A stretch of 38,773 nucleotides of DNA from a virus (lineage: Duplodnaviria; Heunggongvirae; Uroviricota; Caudoviricetes), in the IMG/VR virus record IMGVR_UViG_2671180896_000005, positions 1 to 38,773 of that record, one strand, 5' to 3'. Of this stretch, positions 13,132 through 14,633 are shown one piece after another; the first letter of the stretch is position 1, and every line of letters begins with the position of its first letter. Position numbers and translations under genes: made by a program. The notes below the pieces were generated by a model that saw nothing but the letters and a program-made list of their open reading frames with translations, did no database searches and had not been told where the DNA came from.

Positions 13132-13198
13132 TGAAACAGATGAGTTGAGTTCAAACTGTAGTACAATTCTCTCCAGTTTGAACAGGAAAGAATATGCT

Positions 13199-13531
13199 AT
13201 GAATCCTTATATTTATCTTGGTGGTGCAATACTTGCAGAGGTCATTGGTACAACCTTAATGAAGTTTTCAGAAGGTTTTACACGGTTATGGCCATCTGTT
13301 GGTACAATTATTTGTTATTGTGCATCATTCTGGTTATTAGCTCAGACGCTGGCTTATATTCCTACAGGGATTGCTTATGCTATCTGGTCAGGAGTCGGTA
13401 TTGTCCTGATTAGCTTACTATCATGGGGATTTTTCGGCCAACGGCTGGACCTGCCAGCTATTATAGGCATGATGTTGATTTGTGCCGGTGTGTTGGTTAT
13501 TAATTTATTTTCACGAAGCACACCACATTAA
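13199..13531 (+). CDS. emrE: SMR-family multidrug efflux transporter (110 aa)
   Basis: MNPYIYLGGAILAEVIGTTLMKFSEGFTRLWPSVGTII... matches E. coli EmrE; four TM helices with conserved Glu14. Start placed at the internal ATG (track ORF begins 18 codons earlier). Confidence 0.9.
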   Translation: MNPYIYLGGAILAEVIGTTLMKFSEGFTRLWPSVGTIICYCASFWLLAQTLAYIPTGIAYAIWSGVGIVLISLLSWGFFGQRLDLPAIIGMMLICAGVLVINLFSRSTPH

Positions 13532-13564
13532 AAATAATTTCTTTTGAATCGAGTGAAATAGGTT

Positions 13565-13590
13565 AGCCCGCATAAGTGCGGGCTGCTTTT
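13565..13590. terminator. terminator hairpin between convergent emrE and esterase genes
   Basis: 8-bp stem AGCCCGCA/TGCGGGCT (13565-13572/13577-13584), loop TAAG, then GCTTTTT on the plus strand; abuts the esterase stop. Confidence 0.5.
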
Positions 13591-14633
13591 TACAGGTCAG
13601 CGTTTGTTTTTTGTTGTTGGGTAGCGGTTTTTATTGGGGTTCCCAGGTTTTTAGTAAACCACTCAACAACTCTGTTTATAATAATTGGCTGATACCATGT
13701 ATTATCGCCATGCTCAGCCCCTTCTACCAGAACGTACTCAGCGTTATCGCCGTTCTTCTTCAACATCCTGAATAGTTTGGCGCTTTGCTCAGGTGAAACC
13801 AGAGTGTCTTTGCTACCATGCATAATAAGAAATGGGGGTTTTACTCCTTTCATATGTCCGATTGGACTGGCGTTTAGCGCTTTTTCTTTTGACGCTGTTA
13901 TGGGGGCTCCCGCAAAACTTCTGAATGCAGGGCCATTGATCATTAAGGCTTCGGTTACGGCAGGAGATCGATGAACCTCCTGCACAGATTCAGGGAACCC
14001 CTCGCCAATATTCAACAAGTCAGAAATCCCATAAAGTGTGGCAACTGCCTGAACATCTGCTGATTGCTGAAGAAAGTCACCTTTATCAAAGGTTTTGTCA
14101 CCATTTGTAGTTCCCATCATCTGGGCAAGCCATCCACCGGCAGAGTCACCCAGAACTCCGATTCTTTGAGGATCAATCCCATAATCGCTGGCATGTTCTC
14201 TCAAGTAACGTATTGCAGCTTTCCCATCCTCAACTGGTGCTGGAAATGTATCAGGAATTGTTCTGTATTCTACAGCGGCCACAACAAAACCAGCTTCAGC
14301 CAGAGCCATTCTCATTTCAATAAATTTGTCATGTTCAGAAGACATGAATCCGCCGCCGGGATAATAAATAATGGCTGGTTTTAAATCATTTGTTCGTGGG
14401 ACAAGAACTGACATGTGAAGCTGTCTGACAGAACGAGTTCCTTTTATCTGGGAATAAACAACATCACCAATGAGATCGACCTGGTTTCTGGTCGGTGAAA
14501 CACTAATGATATCTGCACCCGGGGTGTAACCAGGAAGATTAGTCTGGACAGGTCTTGCACAACTCCCGACCGACATGGCCATTGACATACCATACAATAG
14601 TGTTGCAGATGATAATATCTTGTTAATTTTCAT
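13590..14633 (-). CDS. secreted alpha/beta-hydrolase (esterase/lipase, GDSAGG type)
   Basis: 347-aa ORF with N-terminal signal peptide (possible lipobox VGSC), oxyanion-hole YYPGGGF, nucleophile elbow GDSAGG and C-terminal HGSKD / AEHGD motifs. Confidence 0.8.
   Translation of the reverse strand: MKINKILSSATLLYGMSMAMSVGSCARPVQTNLPGYTPGADIISVSPTRNQVDLIGDVVYSQIKGTRSVRQLHMSVLVPRTNDLKPAIIYYPGGGFMSSEHDKFIEMRMALAEAGFVVAAVEYRTIPDTFPAPVEDGKAAIRYLREHASDYGIDPQRIGVLGDSAGGWLAQMMGTTNGDKTFDKGDFLQQSADVQAVATLYGISDLLNIGEGFPESVQEVHRSPAVTEALMINGPAFRSFAGAPITASKEKALNASPIGHMKGVKPPFLIMHGSKDTLVSPEQSAKLFRMLKKNGDNAEYVLVEGAEHGDNTWYQPIIINRVVEWFTKNLGTPIKTATQQQKTNADL

Follow-up and report, generated by a model that had tools for sequence, protein, structure and literature searches.

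The closest described counterparts of the locus treated here are the DLP12 prophage of Escherichia coli K-12, with the gene order renD-emrE-ylcJ-ybcK-ybcL-ybcM-ylcH-ybcN, and phage Perceval of strain LF82, of which emrE has been cited as a moron, the hydrolase not being mentioned in the main text of the study (PMC9928086). On the enzyme side, BD-FAE (6TKX/6XYC), from a polysaccharide utilization locus of gut Bacteroidetes, has been shown experimentally to be both a feruloyl and an acetyl-xylan esterase, with a Ser-Asp-His triad (PMC8165983). We have analyzed a stretch of 38,773 nucleotides from a Caudoviricetes virus (IMG/VR record IMGVR_UViG_2671180896_000005, in the following called the window), in which emrE converges with a gene for a predicted exported esterase. 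The first-pass annotation of this DNA had described the two genes as a cargo pair sharing one terminator, with the esterase as a lineage-specific addition, and had correctly pointed out that a different gene set follows emrE in DLP12. From the present analysis it is likely that they are two unrelated morons lying side by side in the O/P/ren-to-nin variable slot of a lambdoid prophage, that the esterase is a Sec-exported carboxylesterase of the BD-FAE family, and that the contact between the genes came about by modular recombination. The features concerned are the following.

13199-13531, + strand: emrE, small multidrug resistance (SMR) multidrug/quaternary-cation efflux transporter, 110 amino acids, from ATG 13199 to TAA 13531 (NCBIfam EmrE).
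13564-13591, + strand: intrinsic terminator of emrE, stem 13565-13572/13577-13584, TAAG loop, T5 (terminator scan).
13590-14633, - strand: alpha/beta-hydrolase esterase, 347 amino acids (Pfam BD-FAE; PHROG 3341; signal peptide with Cys25).
13586-14897, no strand assigned: esterase module, consisting of the open reading frame (ORF) and 264 bp of 5' flank, without a hairpin of its own (pairwise blastn).

The distribution of both genes was assessed in 5,426 complete E. coli genomes. emrE is present in 3,693 and the esterase gene in 681 of them (about 12.6%, including sequence type 131 (ST131), JJ1887 and LF82), and the esterase is thus not a fixed companion wherever emrE occurs. Nor is it lineage-specific, since it is widespread in the species and also found in isolated phages. 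The notion of a pair does not hold either: 439 of the 681 carriers have P followed by a 4.3-kb inverse-autotransporter gene that adjoins the esterase, with no adjacent emrE (as in JJ1887), in 172 ybcK intervenes (ren-emrE-ylcJ-ybcK-esterase, as in SCU-301 and ST131), and direct contact was found in two, Rb-50 and F467. About 68 other carriers are by appearance mostly disrupted by IS66, to judge from one fully sampled locus and from entries with partial coverage. The isolated phages 4A7 and Perceval have both genes, in the ybcK layout. The right-hand neighbours of the esterase are constant, the gene lying directly upstream of ylcH-ybcN, always in the same orientation, in 7/7 E. coli or phage loci where it is intact; ylcH-ybcN is still next in a locus (L007) where the gene is split by an IS66 element. 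emrE and the esterase gene are independently travelling, already catalogued passenger genes, with annotated copies in hundreds of genomes as well as in isolated phages, and the region is an ordinary moron region in which the window presents a rare rearrangement, a structural variant rather than a new system.

The commonest partner of the esterase gene encodes an inverse autotransporter of 1,421 amino acids (intimin/invasin-like; 1699-5964 in the JJ1887 locus, L004). In a subset of carriers (L006/L007), IS66/ISEc23 insertions at or within the 3' end of the esterase gene have removed the last four codons or split the gene.

The left border of the esterase module, 13586, was placed by comparison with JJ1887 (L004) and the right border, 14897/14898, by comparison with K-12 (L010) and S1 (L011). 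The proposal that the ren-to-nin slot is a cargo hotspot was borne out, with at least six gene sets there and three independent comparisons that agree on the right-hand border (14897/14898):

K-12: emrE-ylcJ-ybcK-ybcL-ybcM.
ybcK layout (SCU-301, ST131): emrE-ylcJ-ybcK-esterase.
Rb-50 and F467: emrE-esterase.
JJ1887: inverse autotransporter-esterase.
Strain S1: outer-membrane protein (OMP) cassette in ren plus two hypothetical genes.
This window: OMP cassette plus emrE-esterase.

The esterase gene forms a self-contained 1.3-kb module, always set in opposite orientation just upstream of ylcH-ybcN. Compared with the ybcK layout, a clean segment of 2,074 bp is missing from the window; ybcK, a large serine recombinase gene, lies inside this 2.07-kb indel. 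In SCU-301 a copy of the emrE 3' end plus terminator lies on either side of the ylcJ-ybcK segment (12725-12762 and 14799-14876 of L001; 13523-13600 in the window); the two copies have diverged but share a 15-nt identical run, CATTAAAAATAATTT. The copy beside the SCU-301 esterase retains CCCCATTAA (emrE: CCACATTAA) and over 78 nt matches the window junction at 99% identity. The presence of an emrE 3' end beside the esterase in ybcK-type prophages implies that an emrE-terminator-esterase junction predates the ybcK layout. The emrE and esterase alleles are just 3-4 nt apart between the layouts, and for this reason a direct junction surviving as a relic and one formed by secondary deletion across the 15-nt repeat are not separable. 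Prophages at three attachment sites, thrW (window), argU (F467) and beside dsdC/torI (Rb-50), have the direct junction together with identical emrE alleles, and this shows that modules are exchanged between prophages. The tail-to-tail contact of emrE and the esterase gene would stem from such modular recombination.

The gap between the two genes is 58 bp and contains one GC hairpin. Its stem comprises 8 bp, or 9 pairs if the T13564-G13585 wobble is included, and the 69-nt hairpin context folds at -21.8 kcal/mol (z = -3.0 relative to shuffled sequences). The hairpin lies 4 nt past the esterase stop codon, and the T5 run (13587-13591) overlaps the complement of this codon by 2 nt. A terminator scan called the hairpin on the + strand only; on the - strand the stem still folds, but AACCUAUUUCAC comes next, which is no U-tract, and the scan gives no match. 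The hairpin is shared in position only, and canonical terminator anatomy is complete for emrE alone. What remains of the proposed common terminator is consequently its position, whereas the T-run is on the + strand only and the hairpin came with the emrE side. In JJ1887 another hairpin (GGGAGGGC-TTA-GCCCTCCC) is joined to the CTTTTTA, common to both loci, in which the esterase stop codon lies, and a different hairpin at this place implies that the GC stem in the window belongs to the emrE side. In ybcK-containing prophages the same hairpin and the last 9 nt of emrE adjoin the esterase.

The emrE product scored 239 bits against NF042984 (cut-off 226), with residues 1-110 of 110 covered. It had been called EmrE-identical, which is nearly but not exactly the case: 108/110 residues match K-12 EmrE (the sequence of PDB entry 3b5d), and the changes, I101V and L104F, are in the C-terminal helix. 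At the nucleotide level the gene is identical to the Rb-50 and F467 alleles and has five differences from K-12 (98.5% identity). Both genes and the hairpin were found at the places first given, with small corrections. The emrE gene itself was correctly called, but the suggested start at 13145 is just the first in-frame TTG of the ORF, upstream of ATG 13199, the start that RefSeq annotates at near-identical loci. The membrane-embedded Glu14, which is needed for proton/substrate coupling in EmrE, is retained in the sequence MNPYIYLGGAILAEV... Given this near-identity, the protein would be expected to work as in K-12, as a proton-coupled SMR exporter. The gene is of the ordinary DLP12 type and brings along both a ribosome-binding site and a hairpin-plus-T-run terminator. 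Between the ren stop and the emrE start (13132-13198), a 9-bp inverted repeat (TTCAAACTG ... CAGTTTGAA) around a TACAAT hexamer was seen by eye; a role in the regulation of emrE, or as its promoter, is possible.

The best Pfam match of the esterase is BD-FAE (PF20434; 1.5e-44, 152.6 bits, cut-off 26.8), with residues 80-290 aligned to profile positions 7-214 of 215. Overlapping matches to Abhydrolase_3 and Peptidase_S9 were also obtained, and the founding BD-FAE enzyme has been described with the same overlapping matches (PMC8165983). PHROG 3341, 'esterase', matches at 1.9e-129. The NCBIfam GTSAG, GESAG, GCSAG and Aes models gave 32-58 bits against cut-offs of 380-430, and the oxyanion motif is PGGG, not HGGG; judged from its sequence, the esterase is related to, but not a member of, the curated family IV groups of the hormone-sensitive-lipase type. 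GDSAGG is at residues 162-167 and PGGG at residues 92-95. S164, D276, H308 and P92-G95 are invariant in an alignment of 47 sequences (46 homologues at 61-78% identity), and they align to the catalytic motifs of 6nkf (GDSxGG, HGxxD). The family assignment called for by the first-pass annotation thus yields BD-FAE, with a Ser-Asp-His triad and PGGG, and no inactivating change was found at the catalytic residues, Ser164/Asp276/His308 being intact. An AlphaFold model (pLDDT, a per-residue confidence score, 82.9; pTM, the predicted template modelling score, 0.82) had as top Foldseek matches Lip_vut4 6nkf, Thermogutta Est2 5ao9, BD-FAE 6tkx/6xyc and the Bacteroides eggerthii GH43-CE protein 6mly.

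Homologues at 63-80% identity occur mainly in Dickeya, Pectobacterium, Pantoea (often on large plasmids), Kosakonia, Enterobacter, Klebsiella, Kluyvera and rhizobia, and the non-prophage homologues have chromosomal or plasmid settings beside LysR regulators and major facilitator superfamily (MFS) transporters. The exact protein is already in NCBI as WP_053271773.1; a literature search found no paper on this esterase.

The N-terminus, MKINKILSSATLLYGMSMAMSVGSC25ARP, is a Sec signal peptide. It had been suggested that the esterase may be a lipoprotein. A loose lipobox pattern of the PROSITE type is {DERK}(6)-[LIVMFWSTAG](2)-[LIVMFYSTAGCQ]-[AGS]-C. Cys25 agrees with this loose pattern, with Lys within the first seven residues, but not with the strict one (see below). 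Cys25 is found in 6/6 E. coli comparison loci and in all listed full-length cluster members except the representative, P0001, which has Tyr25; the idea raised by that 90%-cluster representative, that Cys25 is peculiar to the window, was rejected on account of the six loci and ten listed members with Cys25. The nearest clade outside E. coli mostly has S-[AT]-G-C. Arg27 (T27R) is absent from every other sampled allele. The esterase is plausibly anchored as a lipoprotein via Cys25, and with Ala at +2 such a lipoprotein would go to the outer membrane.

The ratio of nonsynonymous to synonymous substitution rates (dN/dS) between esterase alleles is 0.09-0.30, and 671/681 carrier genomes have a copy that covers 80% or more of the gene; the esterase is under purifying selection. 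Published transcript data for the LF82 lysogen include its Perceval copy, PERCE_52, the product of which is 98.8% identical to the esterase. Its log2(FPKM+5) values, where FPKM denotes fragments per kilobase per million, were about 4.1-4.4 in lysogeny broth (LB), 6.9-7.2 in condition B1 and 7.0-7.3 at 1 h in macrophages, and in the same data emrE had 4.4-7.4, P 2.3-2.9 and NinE 2.3-4.0 (PMC9928086 S1 Table). The PERCE_52 transcript level is hence close to that of emrE and clearly exceeds those of the flanking P, NinB and NinE. We call the esterase gene a moron on the grounds that it is a discrete insertion (13586-14897) and that the near-identical PERCE_52 is transcribed in LF82. A lenient promoter scan upstream of the esterase gave 8-of-12 matches at best, one with an extended -10, which were not counted as evidence; the speculative candidate is listed here.

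14758-14785, - strand: weak candidate esterase promoter (CTCTCA, 16 nt, TG-n-AATAAT extended -10; lenient scan).

Of the relatives with known activity, the closest take feruloyl or acetyl groups off plant xylan and pectin or cleave short-chain esters. Because family, fold and homologue ecology point to a carbohydrate or short-chain ester substrate, we infer that the protein is an exported serine carboxylesterase acting on acetyl/feruloyl oligosaccharide esters or other short-chain esters, by analogy with these relatives. Within the envelope of the lysogen it would de-esterify oligosaccharides that bear acetyl or feruloyl groups, or other small esters. Several points weigh against the interpretation of the gene as a moron for an exported BD-FAE carboxylesterase. 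In LB, PERCE_52 is under the 5-fold moron threshold and absent from Table 1 of the LF82 study (PMC9928086), and a standard promoter scan of the - strand of 14634-14897 found no promoter. VGSC, with Gly at -2, does not conform to the strict lipobox [LVI][ASTVI][GAS]C, an alternative signal peptidase I (SPase I) site is present (S-C-A, cut before R), and more distant homologues have plain AxA signal-peptidase I sites. The best structural match, 6nkf, carries a lipase label. No enzymatic data traceable to publication were found for the esterase or for homologues above about 37% identity, and we know of no use of feruloylated or acetylated xylan by E. coli. A match to the published Dickeya enzyme FaeD, which is reported to leave the cell through the Out type II secretion system (PMC9007343), was not established, as the 66% and 46% identical Dickeya paralogues were not told apart.

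Two independent passengers brought together by recombination, one of them a BD-FAE carboxylesterase, remains the reading that we prefer, and the alternatives mainly concern what the esterase does. One more specific version is that it is an envelope-anchored feruloyl/acetyl carbohydrate esterase derived from plant-associated Enterobacterales and serving as a nutrient-access factor of lysogenic conversion, which we regard as rather doubtful. If true, gut and extra-intestinal E. coli (ST131, LF82 and others) would remove acyl groups from fragments of dietary fibre or of host glycans, by a logic like that of the NanS-p sialate esterases of Shiga toxin (Stx) phages, the folds being unrelated. It is unlikely that the enzyme is instead a lipase or a virulence-type esterase whose targets are host lipids or esters of host origin, for example in extra-intestinal or intracellular life. 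The best solved relative, Lip_vut4, was deposited as a lipase, the carriers include extra-intestinal pathogenic E. coli (ExPEC) of ST131, JJ1887 and the adherent-invasive E. coli (AIEC) LF82, and the JJ1887 prophage also has the inverse autotransporter and iss; the transcript exceeds its LB level at 1 h in macrophages, but it rises in Dulbecco's modified Eagle medium (DMEM) without macrophages as well. Moreover, the Pfam and NCBIfam matches are short-chain or carbohydrate esterases, and the homologues are overwhelmingly from plant- and soil-associated bacteria. A role on the lysogen surface, by removal of O-acetyl groups from O-antigen, capsule or envelope glycans with effects on phage receptors or immune recognition, would be a classic form of lysogenic conversion. 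The gene is prophage-borne, its product is predicted to be exported, and it is expressed from a repressed prophage; many phage esterases act on glycan O-acetyl groups. However, glycan-acting phage esterases are typically of the SGNH-fold tail-spike or NanS type and not BD-FAE alpha/beta-hydrolases, the LysR and MFS neighbours of the non-prophage homologues suggest nutrient processing, and no glycan-synthesis genes are linked to the esterase, which makes surface modification quite improbable.

It might also be argued that the esterase is a decaying passenger without a current function in E. coli, given that IS66-interrupted and truncated copies exist, that no strong promoter was found and that the LB transcript is low. 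We consider this very improbable in view of the 671/681 copies with at least 80% coverage, the intact catalytic and motif residues, the dN/dS values and an LF82 transcript above those of the flanking phage genes. Finally, emrE and the esterase could form a co-selected detoxification unit, in which the esterase cleaves ester-containing cationic xenobiotics, EmrE exports these or their products and the hairpin insulates the genes from each other. Both are envelope proteins encoded 58 bp apart, both transcripts are up in DMEM and in macrophages in LF82, and the esterase family matches the chloramphenicol-hydrolase model NF033149 weakly and in part (60.7 bits, cut-off 500). On the other hand, emrE lies within about 2.2 kb in 174/681 esterase carriers and in direct contact in the two genomes named above, the 439 genomes with the inverse autotransporter neighbour lack emrE there, the module borders are separate, and emrE is mostly found without the esterase in its 3,693 genomes. 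As the genes are convergent, co-transcription is impossible, and a detoxification unit is extremely improbable.

The prophage itself could be placed from the start of the window, where family and tRNA searches identified proA (1-1254), tRNA-Thr(CGU) (1369-1444) and a tyrosine integrase gene (1459-2622, - strand), which together indicate a lambdoid prophage at the proA-thrW site. The same searches led us to reject icd as the flanking host gene, which had been suggested by SCU-301, where the prophage is integrated at icd. At 1,164 nt the integrase gene is exactly as long as intD of DLP12, a prophage attached at argU, and the same cargo region is known in prophages at argU, icd and beside dsdC/torI. 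Replication gene P (10832-11533) is followed by a ren remnant, the OMP gene, the rest of ren, emrE, the esterase and the nin genes. A 447-bp spacer between the esterase and ybcN/ninB holds a 33-amino-acid ylcH-like ORF. GC content is 0.37-0.49 across 11.8-14.9 kb, compared with 0.50-0.57 in the flanking P and nin genes. In an Rfam scan of the whole window the tRNA was the sole match, and known RNA elements were not found in the intergenic regions. The flanking features are:

11530-11596, + strand: ren 5' fragment, about 22 codons, the translation of which (MTGKEAIIDYLGTHKSFCALEVV) matches the start of intact Ren in L002.
11597-12908, no strand assigned: cassette of 1,312 bp substituting for 13 nt of ren (borders by blastn against L001, L002 and L003).
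12024-12752/12773, - strand: outer-membrane beta-barrel gene, 242/249 amino acids (Pfam OMP_b-brl, 1.7e-23).
12909-13131, + strand: ren 3' fragment (PHROG 142 'Ren-like exclusion protein', 2e-20; translation compared with intact Ren).
14983-15084, + strand: ylcH-like ORF of 33 amino acids (translation).
15081-15536, + strand: ybcN/ninB (NCBIfam PRK09741, 273.6 bits; PHROG NinB/Orf).

The placement of the cargo between ren and the nin genes has to be amended in that ren is a pseudogene here, broken by the 1.3-kb OMP cassette. Homology to prophages with intact ren ends at 11596 (blastn), and an in-frame stop lies in ren upstream of a 61-amino-acid ORF (12946-13131). The OMP gene matches the PHROG 'Lom outer membrane protein' at 2.2e-6, with weak similarity to Lom/Opacity/Adr, and the cassette is present in 6/5,426 genomes, among them mouse strain S1 at 99.9% identity.

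In the immunity region, genes for a Ser/Thr protein kinase (7365-8090, - strand) and a PP2C-type phosphatase (6625-7368, - strand) are located directly downstream of an S24/XRE-type repressor gene (8186-8941, - strand), and the two may serve the prophage as a pair for defence or abortive infection. At the equivalent position F467 has genes for a HipA-family kinase and a DUF3037 protein.

The contact between emrE and the esterase gene is of little structural import, being a rare recombination by-product in a known variable slot. The locus nevertheless illustrates how lambdoid prophages shuffle cargo modules of 1-4 kb at fixed joints, with one right border and three cargo sets. About one in eight complete E. 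coli genomes, clinically important lineages included, carries a conserved and expressed esterase with predicted export, the substrate of which would be cheap to determine.

Among solved structures the closest to the esterase is Lip_vut4 (6NKF), a lipase/esterase from a goat-rumen metagenome (sequence E = 6.7e-37, fold E = 2.4e-26, template modelling (TM) scores 0.71/0.81), with 31% identity over the Foldseek alignment; the solved chain of Lip_vut4 is without a signal peptide. BD-FAE (6tkx) has the same alpha/beta-hydrolase fold (Foldseek E = 1.6e-18, TM 0.67 for the query and 0.79 for the target) at about 25% identity, but it is encoded in a xylan-degradation locus together with glycoside hydrolases, while the esterase is alone in a prophage. 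In Dickeya, secreted feruloyl esterases of the FaeD/FaeT group belong to the pectinase repertoire. A 'Ferulate esterase' of Dickeya aquatica is 66% identical to the esterase and similar in length (343 versus 347 amino acids), with a signal peptide, and a second secreted D. aquatica paralogue, encoded beside a divergent LysR regulator, is 46% identical. In contrast to the esterase in the window, the Dickeya proteins have plain SPase I signals without Cys25 and are chromosomally encoded and regulated. In the D. aquatica locus (L013, 5001-10075) the two secreted BD-FAE paralogues are encoded 3 kb apart, with MFS transporter and LysR regulator genes between them.

At the level of the locus, DLP12 of K-12 has emrE at the same place after ren and ylcH-ybcN-ninE-ybcO-rusA-ylcG in the same order, with homology to the window resuming at 14898, but the 3.6-kb ylcJ-ybcK-ybcL-ybcM segment takes the place of the 1.3-kb esterase module. 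ren is interrupted by IS3 in K-12 and by the OMP cassette in the window, and DLP12 is attached at argU whereas the window prophage is at proA-thrW. The phages Lambda_4A7 and Perceval (genus Bievrevirus; Perceval is the LF82 prophage) and the ST131 prophages have the same ren-emrE ... esterase-ybcN region as the window. Their esterases, already annotated as 'esterase' or 'alpha/beta hydrolase', are 98.8% identical to that in the window at the protein level, and all of them, unlike the window, have kept ylcJ and ybcK between emrE and the esterase gene.

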